Source of the DNA: Patescibacteria group bacterium
GTDB taxonomy: Bacteria; Patescibacteriota; JACPGU01
Reading direction: 5' to 3'
DNA length: 64,000 bases
NCBI GenBank assembly: GCA_028718745.1
Contig: JAQULF010000003.1
Span: 160-64,159 of the forward strand
In this document: piece after piece, positions 10,193 to 19,231 of the stretch
How the letters are laid out: every line of letters starts with the position of its first letter
Position numbering within the stretch: position 1 is the first letter of the stretch
Notes under the pieces: generated by a model
Told to the model about the DNA's origin: nothing
What the model saw: the letters and a program-made list of their open reading frames with translations, nothing else
Database searches by the model: none
Program-made: the position numbers and the translations under genes

Positions 10193-12790
10193 ATGTATAT
10201 TCCTTCAAAAAAATCCCGTCTTTTTAAACGAAGAAATAATATGGTTTCCGGAGAACACTATAGTTTTTCATCTTCGAGTAGTTCCGGTCCCTTGGGAAGA
10301 TATTCACCCGAAACCAGAAGGAAAATTTTAAAATATCTTCTCTATGGAGCGGGAATTTTTGTATTTCTTATCATTACCCTTTTTGTCTGGTACTCTCGCG
10401 ACCTGCCCAATCCGTATAAAATTAATGGCCGAGATATTGCTCAATCGACCCAGATTCTCGATCGCAACGGCAAACTACTCTACGACATTCATGGCGAAGA
10501 AAACCGAACTTTGATGAAAATCGACGATATTCCCGAGAATATAAAAAAGGCTACGGTCGCCATAGAGGATCAGGATTTTTACAAGCACATGGGGATTGAT
10601 CTGAAAGGTGTAGCCAGAGCTTTCTTTTACGACATCGTCCATCGCAACGCTACTCAAGGAGGATCCACGATTACCCAGCAATTTGTCAAAAATGCGCTTT
10701 TGACTTCAGACAAGAGTGTAGCTCGAAAAATCAAAGAGCTTATTTTGTCTATTGAAATTGAAAAAGTCTATTCCAAAAATGAAATTCTGGGAATGTATCT
10801 GAATGAAATTCCTTACGGTAATAATGCCTATGGAATCTATTCCGCTTCCAAAACCTATTTTGGCAAAGAACCAAAAGATCTGACATTAGCCGAATCGGCA
10901 CTTCTAGCTTCTGTTCCGCAAGCACCAACCTATTACAATCCTTACGGATCTAATACCGATGTTTTGATGGCCCGAAAAGATTATACACTGGATAAAATGG
11001 TTGAATTGGGATTGACCACCAAGGCGGATGCTGATGTTGCGAAGAAAGAAGAAATAAAATTTGTCCAGCAAGATCAAGGAATTTTGGCGCCTCATTTTGT
11101 TATGTATATCAAAGATCTGTTGGCGCAAAAATACGGCGAAGATCGGCTTCAGCAAGGCGGATTGATTGTAACCACTTCCCTTGATTTGGACAAGCAAAAG
11201 ATCGCTGAAGATGTCCTAACCAACAGCAAAGCAAATTTGAAAGCTAGCGGCGCTTCAAACGCGTCTCTGGTTTCAATGGATCCAAAAACCGGTGAGATAT
11301 TGGCAATGGTGGGAAGCGTTGATTATTTTGATACTGCTAATGATGGCAATGTTAATGTGTCCATTCGTCCTCGGCAACCGGGGTCGAGCCTAAAACCTTT
11401 TATTTATGGTTTGGCTTTTAATAATCTGGGCTATGCTCCTTCCACTATGATGATGGATGTACAAACCGATTTCGGCCAAGGCTACAAGCCGGGTAACTAT
11501 GATGGCCAATTCCGCGGCCCAGTTTCTATTCGAAAATCTCTCGGCAATTCATTGAATATTCCGGCTGTCGAAACATTAGCCATGGTGGGCGTAAAAAACG
11601 CCACTGACTTTGCTCAAAAAATGGGGTTGACTACTTTGACAGATCCGGATCGTTACGGATTGTCTCTGGTTCTTGGAGGCGGAGAAGTAAAACTTTTGGA
11701 AGAAGTAAATGCTTACTCTGTCCTTGCCAATGGTGGTATAAAACACGATATTCATTCAATTTTAAAAATTACCGATAGCTCCGGAAAAGTTTTGGAAGAA
11801 TACAAATCCAGTGAAGATAAGGGTACAAGAATTCTTGACGAAAATCCGAATTACTTGGTAACCAATATCTTATCCGATGATAATGCCCGTGCCGAAATAT
11901 TCGGTATGGGCGGAGTTCTGACGCTTCCGGGACGGCCTGTCGCCGCAAAAACCGGAACGACTGATGAATATCGCGATGCTTGGACATTTGGCTATACCCC
12001 ATCGGTTGTTACAGGGGTCTGGGCGGGAAACAATAATAATGCCGAAATGAATCATGGATCCGGCGCTATGGTAGCCGCTCCAATTTGGAATAGTTATATG
12101 AAACAAATTCTATCCGGAACACCGGTAGAACAATTTGCCGTTCCATCCGGAATAGTTCATGTTCCGGTGGATGCTTTGACCGGTATGCTGCCGCTTTCTA
12201 ATCTTTCTCCGGAGACAGCTCAAAAATTGCCTACCGCTGACGGAATTTTCTGGAGCAAATTCCAGCCTCAAGCGACAGATAGTGTTCACAAAGTAATAAA
12301 AGTCGTCAAGGGCGGTGATAAATTAGCCGATTCAGATTGCCCGGACAGCATGACTGAAGAAAAAGTATTTTTGGAATTTCATTCAATTAACCCTTCCAAT
12401 CCGAATTGGGAAAATGCGGTTGTGGCTTGGGCCAAAGCAGCCGGGCATAACAATGTCCCAACCGAAAAAGAAAGCTGTAAAGACGCGGTCAAAGAAAATC
12501 AGCCGACAATTACTATCAACTCCCCTCTTGCCAATGCCGATATCAGCGGAAAATTAACCATCATCATCTCCTATATCGCAAAAAAAGATGTTGATAAAAT
12601 CGAGTATTATATTGATGATGAAAAAATCGCCGAGAAAAAATCCGGCGATCCTACCAATGCCGGAAATAATTTCAATCTTGAAGACTTTGCTCTGCCGGCA
12701 ACTCTTTCCGGAAAAGCTAATATCAAAGTAGTTTTGACCGATAAGCTCGGTTTGAAAGCGACCGATGAGGTCTCGGTGAATATCAAGTAG
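10193..12790 (+). CDS. mrcA: Class A penicillin-binding protein 1A (bifunctional glycosyltransferase/transpeptidase)
   Basis: GT51 motifs (AIEDQDFYKHMGID, GGSTITQQ), transpeptidase SSLKPF (SxxK) and KTGTT (KTG); N-terminal TM anchor; alternative start possible at M17. Confidence 0.85.
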   Translation: MYIPSKKSRLFKRRNNMVSGEHYSFSSSSSSGPLGRYSPETRRKILKYLLYGAGIFVFLIITLFVWYSRDLPNPYKINGRDIAQSTQILDRNGKLLYDIHGEENRTLMKIDDIPENIKKATVAIEDQDFYKHMGIDLKGVARAFFYDIVHRNATQGGSTITQQFVKNALLTSDKSVARKIKELILSIEIEKVYSKNEILGMYLNEIPYGNNAYGIYSASKTYFGKEPKDLTLAESALLASVPQAPTYYNPYGSNTDVLMARKDYTLDKMVELGLTTKADADVAKKEEIKFVQQDQGILAPHFVMYIKDLLAQKYGEDRLQQGGLIVTTSLDLDKQKIAEDVLTNSKANLKASGASNASLVSMDPKTGEILAMVGSVDYFDTANDGNVNVSIRPRQPGSSLKPFIYGLAFNNLGYAPSTMMMDVQTDFGQGYKPGNYDGQFRGPVSIRKSLGNSLNIPAVETLAMVGVKNATDFAQKMGLTTLTDPDRYGLSLVLGGGEVKLLEEVNAYSVLANGGIKHDIHSILKITDSSGKVLEEYKSSEDKGTRILDENPNYLVTNILSDDNARAEIFGMGGVLTLPGRPVAAKTGTTDEYRDAWTFGYTPSVVTGVWAGNNNNAEMNHGSGAMVAAPIWNSYMKQILSGTPVEQFAVPSGIVHVPVDALTGMLPLSNLSPETAQKLPTADGIFWSKFQPQATDSVHKVIKVVKGGDKLADSDCPDSMTEEKVFLEFHSINPSNPNWENAVVAWAKAAGHNNVPTEKESCKDAVKENQPTITINSPLANADISGKLTIIISYIAKKDVDKIEYYIDDEKIAEKKSGDPTNAGNNFNLEDFALPATLSGKANIKVVLTDKLGLKATDEVSVNIK

Positions 12791-12800
12791 AAAAATTCAA

Positions 12801-12832
12801 GGGGACTCCACAGGAGTCCCCTTTTTGTTATA
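12801..12832. terminator. Bidirectional intrinsic terminator between PBP1A (+) and the secreted-protein gene (-)
   Basis: GGGGACTCC-acag-GAGTCCCC followed by TTTTTGTT on plus and by a T-run on minus. Confidence 0.6.
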
Positions 12833-12858
12833 TTTTCAAGAGGTGAAGTGATAAAGAT

Positions 12859-13716
12859 TCACTTCTTTTTTTTGGTTGTGGCGGTTTTGACGGGAATCTT
12901 CACTTTAACCATAGCCAGAGTGTTGGACCATTCCTGACCGCTCATCGTTCCCATCATGTGCGGCCGTCCATTGGCATTGAGTTTGGGCGAGTTTTTGTCT
13001 GGCACATCTTCGCCATTAATATCATACCTCATGGTACCGCGAAGATATGTGCCCCCTTTTTGAACATCCACAACAGTGAGTTGTGCAATCCGCCCAAAAT
13101 GTCCCAACCTCTCACTTCCCAACCGTTTTATTCCCTTACTGCAATCGCACCGGTTCCCAGCCTTATCGACAGGCCACGATGCCATACTAGCAATACGGAT
13201 ATCACAGGCGATGAACTTGTCGCCGACTTTTACATCGACATCCGGCGGGTAAAGTTTGCAGAGCGGTGCCTCCGTGTTGGCATAAACGCAGAAAAAAATA
13301 TCCGGCGATGTTTCCATTACATAGTAATAAGGTAGATGCCGCATTCCGTTCGGAGATGGAAGCCGCGGATTATCTATGCGGCTGTAAATCGTAACGCTCT
13401 CATTTTCTCCTCCCCAGGTCTTCTGGAAATCCGCCACGATGCCGCCCCTTTTCATAAAAACGAAGGGTGCTTGGCAAACGGTTCCTTCTTTGTGTTCGTA
13501 GTATTGCGAGTATTCGCACAACACCGGCCGCTCAAATTCCTCAAAAAGCGACGGGTATTCCGGTGAGACAGCGACCATCTCCCCATTCACTTCTTCGAAG
13601 TTAAGCTGGCCGATAGCGACCGGCGGATGAAGCGTTTTGGCGGTCGAGACCGCCGGGATTGCAAACAGAGCCGACAGCACTGCCACAACGATCAAGCTGA
13701 TCTTTGCGTTTTTCAT
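12859..13716 (-). CDS. Secreted Cys-rich hypothetical protein (start re-called at MKNAKISL...)
   Basis: Signal peptide MKNAKISLIVVAVLSALFAIPAVSTA preceded by GGAGG RBS; 8 Cys; lies in GC-rich (~50%) island; the tracked ORF start at 13863 is probably an upstream extension. Confidence 0.45.
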   Translation of the reverse strand: MKNAKISLIVVAVLSALFAIPAVSTAKTLHPPVAIGQLNFEEVNGEMVAVSPEYPSLFEEFERPVLCEYSQYYEHKEGTVCQAPFVFMKRGGIVADFQKTWGGENESVTIYSRIDNPRLPSPNGMRHLPYYYVMETSPDIFFCVYANTEAPLCKLYPPDVDVKVGDKFIACDIRIASMASWPVDKAGNRCDCSKGIKRLGSERLGHFGRIAQLTVVDVQKGGTYLRGTMRYDINGEDVPDKNSPKLNANGRPHMMGTMSGQEWSNTLAMVKVKIPVKTATTKKKK

Positions 13717-13932
13717 GAGTTGACCTCTTCCTCCGGGCTCGCCGGATATTTTGTTTTGATTGGTAAGATGCTTTATCTCACGGGCGTATTGCCATACGCC
13801 CCTACAAAGTATATTTTGGCTTATTATACAAGGTTTTTTGAAAGAATGCAAGAGAGAAATCAAATAGTTATATACTAAGAAAAAAATTATAAAAACCTTA
13901 CTAAGAGTTTTTATTTATAAAAAACACCTCTA

Positions 13933-13960
13933 TTGACACAATTTTTAAAAAGAGTACTAT
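13933..13960 (+). promoter_or_regulatory. Promoter for rSAM operon (-35 TTGACA, 16-nt spacer, -10 TACTAT) in the AT-rich gap
   Basis: TTGACA 13933-13938; TACTAT 13955-13960; GGGAGG RBS 14011-14016, 7 nt before ATG 14024. Confidence 0.4.
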
Positions 13961-14023
13961 TTAATCAGTGCCATTTATTAGATGGTCGGCACATTTAAAA
14001 TCTAAACGCGAGGGAGGCCTGCG

Positions 14024-15427
14024 ATGATATTCAACTCTAGTGTTGCCTACATGAAATCGCCATTCATGCAGGTCGTCCGAGACGGAGACTTCGCTATAAT
14101 CTGGCACTCGTTGTTTGGCTATCCGCGAATTGTTCCTATCGAGACGCTCAAGTTTCTTGAATCGTTGTCGGAACCGACAATGATTCAGTCACAGCTCGGT
14201 AATGAACTAGATAAGGAAAGCCGAGAAACAATCGAGGAATTCGCGCACTGTTATTTCCTCATTCCAAAAGGTTTTAACGATCGAGCTTTCCTCGAAGAAA
14301 AGATGAGGGAAAGAGAAAAAGAAATTAGCAGTGGTTCACTGATTGACCATCTCGAGCTTATCATGAGCGAGGTGTGCAATTTTCGTTGTACCTACTGCAT
14401 CCATTTCAATAATCTGGAAACCTCCGACCGCATCAATAATCCCGAGAAATTCATGCGGTTTGAGATGGCCAAGGAGGCTGTAGATCAGTACTTCGAAATT
14501 CTCCGTGAACATGGAAAGCATACCATCGAAATCAATTTTGGCGGAGGCGAACCGCTGATGGCATGGTCGGTTATCAAGCAAGTGCTTGAATACTGCCGCG
14601 CCACCTATGGTTCGGAGTTCGAATTGCAATTCTCGATCAACACAAATGCTTCCTTTATCACGCAGGAGATCGCTGAAACTCTGAAGAAATATCGGGTTGG
14701 AATCGCTTCCAGCCTCGATGGCTTGCAGGAAGAAAATGACCGCGTTCGGCTAACAAAGTCCGGTGGCGGAACATTTTCCCAAATCCTGCTGGGATTCGAT
14801 AAGCTAGTGCAAGTGGAATACCCACTTGAAGGAATTGCCGTAACAGTAACCGAGAAGAATTTCCGCGGACTGAACGAGTCGATTGTTGACTGGGTGATAG
14901 CTCGCGGAATGAAAGACATTAGGATTGATATCGATGTTCTCGATATGGTAGAAATACCAGTTGAGGATATCGTCGCGAAACTAATGCGCATTCGGAGCTA
15001 TGCGATGAAACAAGGCATCGATGCTCCCGGTTTCTGGTCGCGGCCAGCCGAGAATCTCAATGAGTCAACGCTCGAAAGCCGCGTCGCGTTCTGCGGCGGG
15101 GTTCGCGGCAACAGCATCTGCATAGATCCATCCGGAGATATTTACGGATGCGGCTACAGCACAACTCTACTCGGGAATCTCTCGGAAATTCGATCGCTTC
15201 ATGCGCCCAACTCTGCCTACTATCGCTTCGTGAAAAGCCGTCTTACTGGAGCGATGGAGATGTGCAAGGGATGTATGATCGAGGGGCAATGCGGCGGCGG
15301 CTGCAATATCACGCAGGAATTCGTTCGAGCCACTAAAACTGCTAAAATCGAGCGGATGTGCGACCTTTACCGCCGAATGACTCAAGAAATTCTCCGAGAA
15401 CAACTGCGAGAAGCAACGGCATCATAG
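14024..15427 (+). CDS. Radical SAM / SPASM-domain peptide-modifying enzyme with N-terminal RRE-like extension
   Basis: CX3CX2C (EVCNFRCTYCIHF) at ~aa 117 after a ~115-aa N-terminal extension, GGGEPLM SAM-binding motif, C-terminal SPASM signature CKGCMIEGQCGGGC (Cx2Cx5Cx3C) plus additional Cys (CGGVRGNSIC...GCGYS). Confidence 0.8.
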   Translation: MIFNSSVAYMKSPFMQVVRDGDFAIIWHSLFGYPRIVPIETLKFLESLSEPTMIQSQLGNELDKESRETIEEFAHCYFLIPKGFNDRAFLEEKMREREKEISSGSLIDHLELIMSEVCNFRCTYCIHFNNLETSDRINNPEKFMRFEMAKEAVDQYFEILREHGKHTIEINFGGGEPLMAWSVIKQVLEYCRATYGSEFELQFSINTNASFITQEIAETLKKYRVGIASSLDGLQEENDRVRLTKSGGGTFSQILLGFDKLVQVEYPLEGIAVTVTEKNFRGLNESIVDWVIARGMKDIRIDIDVLDMVEIPVEDIVAKLMRIRSYAMKQGIDAPGFWSRPAENLNESTLESRVAFCGGVRGNSICIDPSGDIYGCGYSTTLLGNLSEIRSLHAPNSAYYRFVKSRLTGAMEMCKGCMIEGQCGGGCNITQEFVRATKTAKIERMCDLYRRMTQEILREQLREATAS

Positions 15428-15469
15428 CCAAAAATTTCCCAGGCCACAACCAGGGGGAGGTGAAAGCTA

Positions 15470-15562
15470 ATGAAAACAAAGGGACGGCCGACCCTCCAAG
15501 TCAGGAGGCTGCCGAGTCTGAAGGTGTGCAACACCTGCCGACAACAAAGCAACTGCCACTGA
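15470..15562 (+). CDS. Candidate 30-aa precursor peptide MKTKGRPTLQVRRLPSLKVCNTCRQQSNCH (three Cys in C-terminal core)
   Basis: ATG 42 nt after the rSAM stop, preceded by GGGGGAGG (15453-15460) at 9-nt spacing; same strand; followed by an intrinsic terminator; not in the ORF track (too short). Confidence 0.35.
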   Translation: MKTKGRPTLQVRRLPSLKVCNTCRQQSNCH

Positions 15563-15596
15563 TCGTGGTGGCGAACAACGATTTACCGGTCTGTAC

Positions 15597-15642
15597 GGGA
15601 CTAAGGGAAAATGCTATACTCCCCTTAGTCCTGTTTTTATTT
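15597..15642 (+). terminator. Intrinsic terminator ending the rSAM-peptide transcription unit
   Basis: GGACTAAGGG (15598-15607) / CCCTTAGTCC (15622-15631), 14-nt loop, then TGTTTTTATTT. Confidence 0.6.
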
Positions 15643-15656
15643 ACTATATTAAACTT

Positions 15657-16172
15657 ATGCCAAAGCTTTCTTTAAGAAAAACTACAAATTTTGACAAAAA
15701 ATACTTTGCCAAATGGTGGAGAGATGAAGATCTGATTAAATTAACCAGTGGCGTTTTGGAACCCATTTCTGAAAAAGAAATAGAAAAATATTTGTCCGCA
15801 ATGGTGAAAAGCCGAACTGACTATCATTTTATGATTGTTTTTGATAAAAAAGTCATTGGCCATATTGCTTTGGCCAAAAGAAGAAGTGGTTGGTATGAAA
15901 CACAAATCGTAATTGGCGAAAAAGCATATTGGGGAAAGGGACATGGCGCAAAAGCGGTTCAATCACTGCTTAAAAAGGCTAAACGATTGAGTATCTCAAA
16001 AATCTATTTGGAAGTTAGACCGGACAATCTTAGAGCGATTCGCGCTTATGAAAAATGCGGTTTCAAAAAAATAAAAACGATGTACTATCCAAAAAATAAG
16101 TATCTGCCAAAAACATTGAGAATGGAATTGAAATCGGAGCTCTTGACCCCCTCTCCCAAAGTGCTAGAATGA
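15657..16172 (+). CDS. GNAT-family N-acetyltransferase
   Basis: Acetyl-CoA binding motif region YWGKGHGAKAV, typical GNAT length; AT-rich host-like composition. Confidence 0.65.
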   Translation: MPKLSLRKTTNFDKKYFAKWWRDEDLIKLTSGVLEPISEKEIEKYLSAMVKSRTDYHFMIVFDKKVIGHIALAKRRSGWYETQIVIGEKAYWGKGHGAKAVQSLLKKAKRLSISKIYLEVRPDNLRAIRAYEKCGFKKIKTMYYPKNKYLPKTLRMELKSELLTPSPKVLE

Positions 16173-17137
16173 AAACAAATAAGAACTTTCGAGTTTTAAA
16201 TAATTTTTTTATGCGAAACAAAAATAAAAACCAATCCGGAATCGCTCTCATCACCACGATAATTTTGACTTCGATAATGTTATCTTCGATGGTTTTGATT
16301 ACCAAAGAAATGACTGATGAAGCCAGGAATTCCATTCGCATCGATAACTCCATGATCGCCTACTACGCCGCCGAAGCGGGGGTGGAAGATGCGCTGCTGG
16401 AATTTCGGTACGATCATAGCGCGGAGATATCAAAGGAAAACGATGCCAACCCAGCCATTGTTGATGTTGCCTGCACGCCGCCGGATAATTTCAACTGCAC
16501 CCCCAGAACCGTAAATCTTAGCACCAATGCACGAGATTATAATGCGAAATCTTTTAATACATCCTACTATGATGTTCTTATGTGGAACAGGGTCAAAAGC
16601 ATTTTGAACCAAAAAATTTTGCGTGACGATACGGCAGAGTTTGTGGTGCCAAATATGGTAGATAATGTTATTTTAGATTGGAGTTGGGATTCGGAAATAG
16701 ATACTCAAAACAGTGGTTTTAGGGTAGAAATAACTGTATATAATGAGGATGGAAGTATGGTACCTATAGAAAAGGATGGGAAAAAATTTACTGATCCAAG
16801 CACAAAATCGATAAAACTATATAGTTCACTTTTGGGTTCTGGTAAAAAAATAATTAGAATAAAGCCGGCTTATGTAGATAAAGGAAGTTATGACCCAATC
16901 ACAGAATCTTATTCGGAAGGAAAATCTCTTCCAAGTGGGATCACACCTTCTATAAATTTAAACATAAACCAGACACCTAATTCAAATTTTATAGCCGGCA
17001 CAATCACAAAAATTGAATCGGTTGGATATTATGGTGGGGTGGCTAGAAAAATCAGCGCTACAGTAGATCGCCCATCAGGAAATATCTTAAATATCTTTGA
17101 TTATGTTATTTATAGTGGAGGTGACCTAATAAAATAG
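16169..17137 (+). CDS. PilX-like type IV pilus minor pilin / pseudopilin
   Basis: N-terminal QSGIALITTIILTSIMLSSMVLI hydrophobic segment followed by IAYYAAEAGVEDAL matches the PilX_N pattern (QRG-aLi...AfqAAEAGl). Confidence 0.5.
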   Translation: MKTNKNFRVLNNFFMRNKNKNQSGIALITTIILTSIMLSSMVLITKEMTDEARNSIRIDNSMIAYYAAEAGVEDALLEFRYDHSAEISKENDANPAIVDVACTPPDNFNCTPRTVNLSTNARDYNAKSFNTSYYDVLMWNRVKSILNQKILRDDTAEFVVPNMVDNVILDWSWDSEIDTQNSGFRVEITVYNEDGSMVPIEKDGKKFTDPSTKSIKLYSSLLGSGKKIIRIKPAYVDKGSYDPITESYSEGKSLPSGITPSINLNINQTPNSNFIAGTITKIESVGYYGGVARKISATVDRPSGNILNIFDYVIYSGGDLIK

Positions 17138-17200: not shown

Positions 17201-19231
17201 TTAGTAGGTGAATTTCTGGACATTGTTCTTTGCGGTAGAACCATCGCTAACATAAACAATGCCACCAGAAGTTATTGTGATGCCAACCGCAGCCAGAAAT
17301 TGGCCATCAGCCGATCCGAGAGATCCGATGGAATACAGAAATGTTCCAGTATTTGTAAAAACCTGAACTCGGTTGTTCCCGAAATCCATCACATATATAT
17401 GGTTTGAAGAATCAGAACCCATATATGACGGAAGACTGAAACAACCATTACCGGAACCACTGCATCCCCATTTCGCCACAAAAGCACCATCAGAGGTAAA
17501 CTTCTGTATGCGATTTCCACCGCTTTCCGATACATAGATGTTATTTTGACTATCAACAGTTATTCCCCATGGCTTGTTAAACTGGCCGTCGCCAGTTCCT
17601 TTTGAGCCCCATTTTAGTAGGAAGTTCCCATTGATGTCAAATTTTTCTATGCGGTGATTTACTGTATTGCCAACTGTGGATGTATCATCAACCACATAGA
17701 TATTGTTCAGCAAATCGAAGGCACATCCCTTCGGCTCATTAAACTGACCATCCCCCATGCCAATGCCCCCGAACCGCCGTAGAAAGACATGAGATGAGTC
17801 GAGCAAGATTACTCCTTCTTCTACAATTGCGATTGTGCCGTCCACCTTGCTGACGCAGACCGCCTCGGGAACGCTCAAATTCGTGGTTCCCAAAATTGCC
17901 GGTCCGATGTAGGCGATGTGAGCACCGTTGGCATCGGTCACATCCACGCGGTTATTGTTCTGATCAACCACATAGACATTGCCCGAATTATCAACAGCCA
18001 GACCGCGCGGATTGTTGTATTGCCCGTTTCCCGATCCGGTTGTCCCCCACTTGCTCACGAAATGCTGCTGCGGGATGGTTGTCGTGCACCCCGTAGTGTT
18101 GAAACTACACGCGGAGCACGAAAGCGTTCCGTCGGTAAATCCCCGACTAGCGCAGGTCGCGCCGTTCAGATTCGCGCCGTCACACTGCTCGGAACCATTG
18201 ATCACGCTGTCTCCACAGTAGGCGCCGATTACCGTGTGCGGTTGACAGGAAGTGTCACAGTAAAAACACTCCGTCCCGTATTCCGACACACAGGCTGTGT
18301 TTGTATTATTCGCACCGTTGTCGCAAGTTTCGAGTCCATTGATGGTGCCGTCTCCGCAATAATTGCCGGAGGCAGTGTGAATGGACTGTTCGAGATTCGC
18401 GATCAGCGTGCTATTGTTTGACAGCGTCGTCATCGCCTCGGAAATCGAGGTCGCCGTTGACAAATCCAACGATGCCGCGGTCGCGTCAGTCTGAACTTGC
18501 GCCGTCATGGCCGCAATTTGTTCATCCGTATAGGATGTTGACAGAGGTTGCGCATTCGCGATGATTTCTTGCGTCACCAGTTCGCTGAATGGGTTTATAT
18601 CGACCACATTCCGCGTGATGCGCGTGCCTCGCGATTTGATCATGGCCCGCATTTTATTCGGGCCGCCACCGACCACGAAGACAAAGATGCTGTCCGGGTC
18701 GATGTTTGTTGGGATGTCTACGGAAAAGTTCCCGTTTTCATCCGTCCTTCCGTGGGCAACCTCATTTCCCCTCTGTTCTCCTCTTTCATTAACCATGATT
18801 ATTGTAACGGTAACGCCGCTCTTCCCTCTCAAGCCGTTATTCGGTGTTGCTGCCAAGCGCCCCGAAACGCGTCCCAGCGAAACTCCTTCAGGTGCCAGGA
18901 CGAGCCCCGTAATTGTTGTTCCCTCCACGCAGTTGAGCGTGGGAATCATCCCGACGCTGTTTCGCGAAATCATGAGCAGATCATTCGAGAGAACTTTTCC
19001 GTCCGGCGCGTTGGGAGGAATAGCCACATCGGCGCGGCTTTTTTGCGCATCCGAAAGCGGCAAGACATCCAAACTGGCGCGAGCCGTCATAAGCACATCA
19101 TTGGAACGGATGTACCCATCCCCCGAAACATCCCCGCATAAAGCCGAAGCTGCCCGAGGATTAGCGGCCAGAAGAATAGCCGCAGCAATCACAGTCAGTA
19201 ACCACTTTGTCCAGATTTTCATATCCCGCAC
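17201..19231 (-). CDS. Secreted protein with dockerin-like N-terminal repeats, Cys-rich EGF-like region and NHL beta-propeller repeats
   Basis: Signal peptide; dockerin duplicated motif DVSGDGYIRSNDVLM / NAPDGKVLSNDLLMI; Cys-rich CGDGTINGLETCDNG...; NHL repeats (YVVDQNNNRVDVTD, YVSESGGNRIQKFTSDG); GC ~50%, unlike flanks. Confidence 0.6.
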   Translation of the reverse strand: MRDMKIWTKWLLTVIAAAILLAANPRAASALCGDVSGDGYIRSNDVLMTARASLDVLPLSDAQKSRADVAIPPNAPDGKVLSNDLLMISRNSVGMIPTLNCVEGTTITGLVLAPEGVSLGRVSGRLAATPNNGLRGKSGVTVTIIMVNERGEQRGNEVAHGRTDENGNFSVDIPTNIDPDSIFVFVVGGGPNKMRAMIKSRGTRITRNVVDINPFSELVTQEIIANAQPLSTSYTDEQIAAMTAQVQTDATAASLDLSTATSISEAMTTLSNNSTLIANLEQSIHTASGNYCGDGTINGLETCDNGANNTNTACVSEYGTECFYCDTSCQPHTVIGAYCGDSVINGSEQCDGANLNGATCASRGFTDGTLSCSACSFNTTGCTTTIPQQHFVSKWGTTGSGNGQYNNPRGLAVDNSGNVYVVDQNNNRVDVTDANGAHIAYIGPAILGTTNLSVPEAVCVSKVDGTIAIVEEGVILLDSSHVFLRRFGGIGMGDGQFNEPKGCAFDLLNNIYVVDDTSTVGNTVNHRIEKFDINGNFLLKWGSKGTGDGQFNKPWGITVDSQNNIYVSESGGNRIQKFTSDGAFVAKWGCSGSGNGCFSLPSYMGSDSSNHIYVMDFGNNRVQVFTNTGTFLYSIGSLGSADGQFLAAVGITITSGGIVYVSDGSTAKNNVQKFTY

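Follow-up and report, generated by a model that had tools for sequence, protein, structure and literature searches.

A candidate radical SAM/SPASM peptide maturation module of CPR bacteria comprising an enzyme, a short Cys peptide and an accessory group-transfer enzyme

The methylcyclopropylglycine synthase TigE is built from an N-terminal RiPP recognition element (RRE; residues 3-85; RiPP, a peptide synthesised by the ribosome and modified after translation), a radical S-adenosylmethionine (rSAM) barrel and a SPASM domain (PMC10878394). It acts on a small ribosomal peptide with repeated TIGSVS units, the product of which contains a C-C bond. PapB (NF047865) and the SCIFF maturase CteB (TIGR03974; PDB 5WGG) are rSAM/SPASM enzymes that connect the sulfur of a Cys with a carbon atom of a second residue within a short, adjacently encoded peptide, while the anaerobic sulfatase-maturating enzymes (anSMEs; TIGR03942; PDB 4K36-39) share the rSAM/SPASM core, have no RRE and act on the Cys of a short Pro-Ser-containing motif. 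Here we analyse a locus in a 64,000-nucleotide stretch, in the following called the window, of contig JAQULF010000003.1 from a Patescibacteria group bacterium (assembly GCA_028718745.1). It encodes an rSAM/SPASM enzyme of 467 amino acids followed by a short Cys-containing open reading frame (ORF), for which a preliminary description had claimed an undescribed RiPP-like pair of maturase and downstream precursor. Our data support this claim: neither gene belongs to a named family, the peptide is kept in about 80 of 84 homologous loci and the enzyme has the RRE-containing layout of TigE. We consider it likely that the locus encodes an RRE-rSAM-SPASM maturase and its cognate RiPP-type precursor, together representing a new family restricted to bacteria of the Candidate Phyla Radiation (CPR; Patescibacteria). 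Judged from gene order, these two genes and one accessory group-transfer enzyme appear to form a three-part module typical of CPR bacteria.

The enzyme and its downstream peptide

The enzyme consists, with approximate borders, of an RRE-like domain (residues 1-100), the CX3CX2C motif (118-125), a GGE motif (174-176) and the SPASM cysteines (357-446). The preliminary description of a 467-residue protein with an N-terminal extension of about 115 residues, a GGE motif and a complete SPASM signature holds in every part, the extension having 117 residues before C118. Among 25 homologues, C118, C122 and C125 of the CX3CX2C motif are at least 90% conserved with one fragmentary sequence as the exception, G174-G175-E176 lies within the invariant block N171-P177 (FGGGEP), and the SPASM cysteines C357, C366, C376, C414, C417, C423, C427 and C446 are invariant and follow the SPASM pattern C357..G371-X4-C376, C414-X2-C417-X5-C423-X3-C427 and C446. 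In Pfam, the enzyme scores 59.5 bits against PF04055 (Radical_SAM; gathering score 29.5), placing it in the superfamily, and also matches Fer4_12. A search of NCBIfam (release June 2026) returned 67 matches, every one below the curated cut-off. PapB, a ranthipeptide maturase, comes out best (151.8 bits against 340), followed by the QhpD, nif11-peptide, ScfB-related, SCIFF (101.2 against 425), CcpM, anSME (97.7 against 349) and HxsB maturases; PapB, QhpD, nif11, SCIFF and CcpM, the closest of these families, are all peptide maturases. By its profile scores the enzyme thus falls in no named family, as had been proposed, and a grouping with anSMEs or cofactor maturases was tested and not seen, the closest structure likewise being that of a RiPP maturase.

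This closest solved structure is TigE (8VPO), which aligns over residues 12-458 (E = 1.9e-36; family profile E = 2.5e-45) and, like TvgB, shows the same succession of RRE, rSAM and SPASM domains at a near-equal length (TigE 472 residues). Foldseek on the enzyme model also ranks TigE first (TM 0.64-0.66), before CteB, ChlB and anSME. The AlphaFold2 model has a mean pLDDT of 69.9 with low confidence only near the cluster-binding loops; its N-terminal domain, formed by strands (8-38) and subsequent helices (39-75), reaches a pLDDT of 85-92. RREs are winged-helix domains of three strands and three helices which bind the leader of a precursor encoded nearby. The TigE N-terminus, of which residues 3-85 are the crystallographic RRE, aligns with residues 12 to about 100 of the enzyme, and the alignment to the SPASM enzymes TigE and CteB extends to the C-terminus. 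The PqqD Pfam model does not match the enzyme. The full-length alignment and fold match with TigE, the modelled N-terminal domain and the conservation of the motifs establish the RRE-rSAM-SPASM architecture by homology; leader binding itself is predicted. The public NCBI annotation lists a 415-residue product (P0001; 89% of the ORF), the start of which cuts off about half of the RRE-like domain (14024..14179), since the alignment with homologues begins at residue 1 and takes in the invariant I26-W27-H28-S29-L30-F31.

The enzyme differs from the described systems in several respects. Identity with TigE is only about 19-25%, and the single, non-repetitive Cys core found here contrasts with the repeated TigE substrates. 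Compared to PapB and SCIFF, the scores are far below the cut-offs, the precursor is encoded downstream and not upstream, and the system is restricted to CPR bacteria; the core contains neither Asp nor Glu, and the peptide has two conserved Cys compared to six Cys within about 45 residues in SCIFF. In contrast to anSMEs, the substrates of which are sulfatases with a C/S-x-P-x-R motif, the enzyme carries an RRE-like domain, and no sulfatase is present among the ORFs of the window or in the neighbourhood of the enzyme in related loci.

Directly 3' of the rSAM gene, at a distance of 40-80 nucleotides (nt), the roughly 80 loci encode a peptide of 30-40 residues. In most homologues the rSAM enzyme has 479 residues, and the equivalent of the ribosome-binding site (RBS) of the peptide gene, AGGAGGTGA, coincides with the final codons and stop codon of the rSAM gene. 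Alignment of 63 unique peptides shows C-8, N-3 and C-2 (numbered from the C-terminus) to be invariant and T-9, P-5, S-4 and P-16 to be near-invariant. A lysine-rich leader block, LxVKxLPKxKVL, precedes a C-terminal core of 9-10 residues, (C/N)TC(Q/R)xPSNC(H/G), with Cys or Asn at position -10 and mostly His at -1. The invariant residues are written by two to four synonymous codons each (Cys-8 by TGT in 43 and TGC in 21 cases; Pro-5 by four codons), which argues for selection acting on the peptide as a protein. The conserved adjacent short ORF, the synonymous codon turnover and the leader/core organisation are the features of a precursor-enzyme pair, and by these sequence features the micro-ORF qualifies as a real gene cognate to the enzyme, as the preliminary description had suspected. 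The window peptide, with its basic leader (..LQVRRLPSLKV) and the core CNTCRQQSNCH, is an atypical copy in that its third Cys lies at -11: the claim of a three-Cys peptide with a strong RBS is correct for the window, but only two of the three Cys are features of the family. Searches of Pfam and NCBIfam with the peptide returned no match, in agreement with its designation as undescribed, and the micro-ORF is apparently unannotated in the public record.

The stop codon of the peptide gene is enclosed by a small hairpin in 43 of 62 unique sequences, with a mean folding energy (RNAfold) of -7.6 kcal/mol compared to -4.0 kcal/mol with the downstream half shuffled. Its stem pairs the final two or three codons with the sequence that follows, and both arms co-vary (TGCCAC/GTGGCA, TGTCAC/GTGAC, TGCCAT/ATGGC, CTGCG/CGCAG). 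This hairpin may stabilise the 3'-end or affect termination or translation.

A protein search returned 387 relatives of the enzyme, the best 120 with 63-78% identity. Those with a named source are nearly all from CPR bacteria (Patescibacteria group, Brenner-, Magasanik-, Uhr-, Portnoy-, Peregrini- and Saccharibacteria), and those without a CPR name are labelled only as "[bacterium]" or "uncultured bacterium". Scanning a genome collection yielded at least three close loci, in Ryanbacteria, Azambacteria and one metagenome-assembled genome (MAG) labelled Gammaproteobacteria, and a metagenome scan with a C-terminal sub-alignment yielded 80 loci, largely from groundwater. Viral contigs of IMG/VR contain no relatives, so that phage carriage is not suggested. 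The high enzyme identity across CPR lineages, the unrelated genomic contexts, the decay of cassettes and the occasional adjacent serine recombinases point to lateral spread of the cassette within CPR bacteria, without proving it. Of the horizontal acquisition originally suggested, this much can be retained, whereas evidence for a source outside CPR was not found, all close relatives being from CPR bacteria. More distantly, a relative from a Verrucomicrobia MAG (28% identity; L005, 5630..11879) lies in a RiPP cluster of canonical type, with a GG-leader Cys peptide (…IKGGAVLVLGCAHCPAPLQRK) encoded upstream, an HlyD-like protein and a C39-ABC exporter, and in Gracilibacteria (30% identity; L004, 5950..8814) two tandem rSAM/SPASM genes are separated by a short ORF ending in ...KRQNCC. 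Both adjoin Cys peptides, suggesting that the wider clade consists of Cys-peptide maturases, and both may represent further undescribed peptide families.

Accessory genes, transcription signals and composition

We clustered all ORFs of the 84 loci, of which about 75 are informative for the gene following the peptide. Directly behind a hairpin, on the same strand, lies a GNAT acetyltransferase (about 160 residues) in 34 loci including the window, a Pol-beta-type nucleotidyltransferase (NTase; about 239 residues) in 36 loci or a class-I SAM methyltransferase (MTase; about 212 residues) in 11 loci; the MTase is itself followed, further downstream, by the GNAT or by a second methyltransferase plus the NTase. 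This adjacency is seen in nearly all informative loci, while the upstream genes are unrelated between loci. As an independent check we inspected four GNAT homologues on long contigs without obvious match to the contigs carrying the rSAM gene. One has the full cassette, two retain an intact peptide gene and hairpin with the rSAM gene deleted, and one has rSAM pseudogene fragments reaching the promoter, with the peptide gone; the GNAT thus accompanies either the cassette or remnants of it, and it outlives the rSAM gene. The three decayed cassettes are those of L161/L162, L163/L164 and L167/L168. All source-named sequences among 531 GNAT homologues are from CPR bacteria. The GNAT gene had been taken for AT-rich host background; the 34 loci and the four independent GNAT loci show it instead to be a conserved third gene of the module.

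Comparison of the accessory enzymes with solved structures gave weak generic matches only (AAC(6'), spermidine acetyltransferases, lincosamide NTase) which indicate no substrate. Identical peptide cores occur with all three accessory types, which are interspersed on the rSAM phylogeny and swap among rSAM enzymes at least 88% identical. We think that the accessory enzyme is probably linked to the peptide in function. Given the identical cores beside three enzyme types, the swaps between closely related rSAM enzymes and the survival of the accessory gene after rSAM loss, interchangeable self-protection fits somewhat better than site-specific tailoring. Self-immunity by acetylation is known from microcin C-type systems (MccE/RimL GNATs), and orphan bacteriocin immunity genes are known to persist alone. 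Similarly, a RimJ/RimL-type GNAT is found here beside a small-peptide biosynthetic gene and persists where the rSAM gene decayed; it differs in that an NTase or MTase can stand in place of the GNAT, and no specific sequence relationship to MccE exists.

The preliminary description had placed a sigma-70 type promoter and an RBS directly upstream of the rSAM gene, and sequences matching both are found there (Table 1); in the closest clade a promoter-like TTGCAT-16/17-TATAAT occupies the equivalent place, with the number of promoter-like sites in the region equalling the shuffle expectation. In related loci (e.g. L085, L091 and L100) a leader hairpin directly follows the predicted transcription start and is succeeded by (A/G)(G/T)xACATT and then CACAA or TAAAA ahead of the RBS. 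Such a leader element might stabilise the 5'-end as a stem-loop or act as an operator. Searching positions 12700-16300 against Rfam returned no match at E <= 1; neither the leader nor the hairpins are therefore known RNA families.

The hairpin between peptide and accessory gene had been described as a strong intrinsic terminator. In the window its 13-bp stem (arms 15595-15607 and 15622-15634) encloses a 14-nt loop (dG -21.2 kcal/mol, z = -3.7) and is directly followed by the U-run UUUUAUUU. Across 30 loci, 89.6% of the alignment cells in the stem are paired, compared to 40-58% in slid controls, with 39 compensatory cells compared to 13 in shuffles. In sequence, stem, U-run and covariation are those of an intrinsic terminator; the 14-nt loop is atypical and a simple terminator scanner missed the hairpin. 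The description as terminator is nevertheless incomplete, as the loop additionally holds conserved promoter-like sequence. Two forms of the hairpin exist: before the MTase gene it is a plain terminator followed by a Shine-Dalgarno (SD) sequence, and before GNAT or NTase genes it has the form TTCACG-[GGGGCTAAGG-AAAAGTGaTAtACT-tACCTTAGCCCC]-U-run without an SD sequence and with a hairpin-to-ATG gap of usually about 5-15 nt (22 nt in the window). Over the 30 loci, the conserved loop positions T23 (G24), T26, A27, A29 and T31 spell the TG-n-TA-n-A-n-T of an extended -10 element, and a -35-like TTCACG, TTTACA or TGCACA lies 17 nt upstream of this -10. The corresponding parts in the window are a -35 TGTACG (15592-15597), the TG (15612-15613) and a -10 TATACT (15615-15620). 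The simplest reading of these sequence features is a terminator of the rSAM-peptide transcript, the loop of which also serves the accessory gene as extended -10 promoter; RNAs initiated in the loop would be without the 5' arm of the hairpin and would thereby escape termination. We also considered an integron attC-like role of the hairpin and set it aside, as the loop positions are fully explained by the extended -10 element, no integrase is nearby and serine recombinases occur in only four to five loci.

The block 12840-15645 was originally described as a GC-rich island of about 50% GC in a genome of about 35% GC. It is indeed GC-richer than its surroundings, although these figures were overstated: its GC content is 47.4% compared to a window mean of 38.8%. 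It is the richest 2.8-kb stretch of the window (maximum 0.475), nearly equalled by 16.3-19.1 kb (0.474) with another GC-rich gene. The comparison of GC at third codon positions (GC3) with the flanking genes gave 0.54 for the rSAM gene and 0.34-0.41 for PBP1A (0.39), TyrRS and GNAT (0.34). In 49 distinct loci, the rSAM gene has a mean GC content of 47.7% compared to 41.5% in the flanks and exceeds the latter in 43, while GNAT and NTase genes have a mean of 32%, below the flanks and about 16 GC points under the rSAM gene across hosts; the MTase gene has 45%. The module is thus a compositional mosaic in every host background, with the rSAM gene (plus peptide and MTase genes) about 6 GC points above and GNAT/NTase genes about 10 below the local flanks, and neither half matches the host composition. 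As the pattern of a GC-high rSAM and a GC-low accessory gene recurs in the 49 related loci, the step in GC at the hairpin belongs to a mosaic conserved within the module itself and does not mark, as had been assumed, the edge of an island.

Proposed mechanism and alternative explanations

The families involved suggest a model according to which the RRE would bind the peptide leader, SAM would be cleaved reductively at the CX3CX2C cluster and a hydrogen atom would be abstracted from a core residue. The auxiliary clusters of the SPASM domain would help to cross-link the core, most probably by connecting one or both invariant Cys as thioether to a carbon of a neighbouring residue, a type of bond known from sactipeptides (Cys sulfur to C-alpha) and ranthipeptides (Cys sulfur to C-beta or C-gamma). 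This would result in a small, cyclised and strongly cationic peptide which, as the module has no conserved protease or exporter, may stay full-length or be handled by general machinery, and the accessory enzyme would either protect the producer or tailor the product. A Cys thioether seems the most likely product because no side chains other than Cys, Asn and Cys are invariant and most of the families nearest in sequence form thioethers, but we regard this as a guess that may turn out either way.

Several observations weigh against the model or parts of it. TigE, the closest solved relative, forms C-C bonds and not thioethers, the thioether acceptor motifs of PapB and NxxC-type peptides are absent from the core, and the lack of an acidic residue leaves it without PapB-like CX3D/E sites. 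The score with the Pfam SPASM model (PF13186), 17.4 bits, does not reach the gathering score of 21.5. Concerning the pair, L148 and L151 have an apparently intact rSAM gene without an adjacent peptide, a third locus lacking the downstream ORF, L087, being cut by the contig end; the window peptide has Gln at -5 in place of the near-invariant Pro, and in two of the four GNAT loci inspected an intact peptide gene and hairpin remain although the rSAM gene is deleted. No conserved protease or transporter is present within about 6 kb of the loci, which is unusual for secreted RiPPs. Core residues -10, -7, -6 and -1 show no correlation with the accessory type and lend no support to site-specific tailoring, and the accessory genes, sharply different in GC from the rSAM gene and with a predicted promoter of their own, could be co-located due to a recombination hot spot.

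The points on chemistry lead to the alternative that survives best, in which the same pair carries out a different reaction: a TigE/TvgB-like C-C bond at the Val/Leu at -12/-11, an anSME-like Cys oxidation, an epimerisation or another cross-link, with the two Cys then perhaps acting as metal ligands or forming a disulfide. Besides TigE being by far the closest solved structure and the missing PapB and NxxC-type acceptor motifs, the detectable relationship to anSME and the well-conserved K-V-L at -13 to -11 are in line with such chemistry. The low identity with TigE, the absence of the TigE/TvgB substrate repeats (TIGSVS, TVGG) from the peptide, the restriction of full invariance to Cys, Asn and Cys and the predominance of Cys-thioether formers among the top-scoring families argue otherwise, and we judge a different chemistry possible, though on the unlikely side.

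Also to be considered is that GNAT, NTase and MTase are unrelated to the peptide, being collected at a recombination hot spot or hitch-hiking as resistance- or toxin-like genes. Their own predicted promoter behind a predicted terminator, the GC difference to the rSAM gene kept in all hosts and the interchange of types with unchanged peptide core would be expected from such genes, and an abundance of divergent aminoglycoside-type acetyl- and adenylyltransferases has been reported for CPR genomes (PMC8651080). Against this, nearly all of the roughly 75 loci that are informative show the adjacency although the genes upstream and further downstream vary, each of the four independently checked GNAT homologues lies with the cassette or with what remains of it, and the spacing from hairpin to ATG is tight and conserved; a mere coincidence of neighbours therefore appears doubtful to us. 

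Going beyond a functional link, the module might be a mobile, CPR-wide peptide toxin and immunity unit of a new type, a speculative and rather improbable proposal at present. The rSAM-cross-linked cationic peptide would serve as an agent against hosts or competing CPR cells, and GNAT, NTase or MTase, expressed from the promoter inside the terminator loop of the peptide operon, would acetylate, nucleotidylylate or methylate either the peptide, thereby inactivating it, or the target of the peptide. Such a unit would explain why three enzyme chemistries share one slot beside identical cores, why the accessory gene and sometimes the peptide gene outlive the rSAM gene in the manner of orphan immunity genes, and why the same two-part composition is found in every host.

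An intracellular modified micro-protein or cofactor precursor, comparable to PqqA/PqqE or MftA/MftC and kept for a need of the cell instead of being secreted, we regard as improbable. PqqA and MftA are short peptides with the conserved part at the extreme C-terminus, as is the case here, and the enzyme identity of 63-78% across CPR lineages together with the almost invariant core is unlike fast-evolving bacteriocins; the module without protease, leader-cleavage motif or exporter would fit as well. The patchy occurrence of the cassette, its decay to pseudogenes and its unrelated contexts are in contrast marks of an accessory mobile trait, to which the atypical composition and the serine recombinases adjacent in a few loci add, no cofactor-using partner enzyme is conserved nearby and motifs with Tyr, Glu or Val-Tyr are missing from the core. 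That the micro-ORF is a chance ORF or regulatory leader and the enzyme acts on another substrate is close to refuted: the missing annotation and family match and the two loci without peptide are outweighed by the roughly 80 loci that keep the ORF, its RBS and its amino-acid pattern while the invariant residues change between synonymous codons, and by the RRE-type domain of the enzyme.

Surroundings, novelty and significance

The features of the locus are collected in Table 1. A terminator of the PBP1A gene upstream of the block had been noted before and is present. The divergently transcribed protein between this terminator and the rSAM gene had been listed as part of the GC-rich block and described as secreted with eight Cys. 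It is secreted, with a signal peptide, and divergent, but has seven Cys when read from its likely start, and we rejected it as a member of the module as this ORFan is absent next to the rSAM gene in all 83 other loci. Its gene has 48.7% GC; a word-based search finds only itself, a full HMMER search of 1.84 billion representatives adds five remote homologues (30-41% identity), and Pfam, NCBIfam and PADLOC give no match. Matches of module proteins in PADLOC (viperin for the rSAM core, PDC-S09 for a minimal NTase, mad2 for the MTase) are at the level of the fold only and were rejected as evidence for a defence system.

Table 1. Features of the peptide maturation locus and its borders, in window coordinates
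Feature	Position	Strand	Description and evidence
PBP1A terminator	12799..12823		pattern scan
Divergent secreted protein	12859..13716	-	likely start MKNAK, 285 aa, 7 Cys; ORF reading
Promoter of the rSAM-peptide transcript	13933..13960	+	sigma-70 type, TTGACA-16-TACTAT; 10/12 in pattern scan, consensus-level only
5' leader	13961..14023	+	small hairpin GTGCC...GGCAC, motif ACATT, RBS GGGAGG; direct reading
rSAM/SPASM enzyme	14024..15427	+	467 aa; ORF listing and direct reading
SD sequence of the peptide gene	15453..15462	+	GGGGGAGGTG; direct reading
Precursor peptide	15470..15562	+	30 aa, MKTKGRPTLQVRRLPSLKVCNTCRQQSNCH, three Cys; conserved 3' of rSAM in about 80 of 84 loci
Small hairpin	15554..15573	+	peptide stop codon in loop; RNAfold, stem covariation
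Bifunctional hairpin/U-run and promoter element	15592..15642	+	predicted from folding energy, covariation and conserved loop
GNAT	15657..16172	+	171 aa, Acetyltransf_3, RimJ/RimL type; Pfam; conserved accessory gene of the module

Downstream of the module, an ORF of 322 residues (16169..17137, plus strand) has a 4-nt overlap with the GNAT stop. The hydrophobic segment at its N-terminus, GIALITTIILTSIMLSSMVLI, has a pilin- or pseudopilin-like look; the ORF has no family match, and its adjacency to the module is not conserved in other loci. A second GC-rich gene (17201..19231, minus strand; 51% GC, GC3 0.55), two genes away from the module and compositionally as unusual as the rSAM gene, encodes a secreted protein of 676 residues with a dockerin-like N-terminal segment, Cys-rich DUF4215-like repeats and NHL beta-propeller repeats, the best NCBIfam match being ScyF-like and under the cut-off. 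In four to five other loci (L091, L095, L100, L107) the module directly adjoins genes of large serine recombinases, hinting at one route of mobility, and additional, different rSAM/SPASM genes within a few kb of the cassette (L003, L119, L125, L148, L157) suggest a local clustering of peptide-modifying systems.

Full-text literature searches for CPR with rSAM, SPASM, RiPP or ranthipeptide and for the core motif returned no description of the cassette. Neither enzyme nor peptide reaches any named family in NCBIfam or Pfam, and Rfam holds nothing for the RNA elements. We therefore regard the cassette as a new family among the peptide maturation systems with rSAM/SPASM enzymes and an RRE. A survey of "resistance-like" genes in CPR bacteria lists many divergent acetyl- and adenylyltransferases without this context (PMC8651080). 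In view of the close coupling of the cassette to three alternative resistance-like enzymes, some of the CPR acetyl- and adenylyltransferases counted as antibiotic-resistance genes may instead belong to peptide systems. 

As a minimal system of one enzyme and a peptide of about 33 residues, the pair is a directly testable target for heterologous expression in the search for new rSAM chemistry, and a terminator with a promoter in its loop, as predicted here, would be a compact regulatory design. If the accessory enzymes do confer immunity, the cassette would be more than a new family, combining restriction to CPR bacteria, a gene number kept to the minimum, accessory enzymes of three alternative types and a promoter-carrying terminator. 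CPR bacteria make up a large share of bacterial diversity and have tiny genomes, and almost nothing is known on what specialised peptide chemistry, if any, they carry out. A cassette conserved across many CPR lineages is a good candidate for encoding a molecule with a role in their episymbiotic lifestyle, be it in signalling, competition or the interaction with the host.

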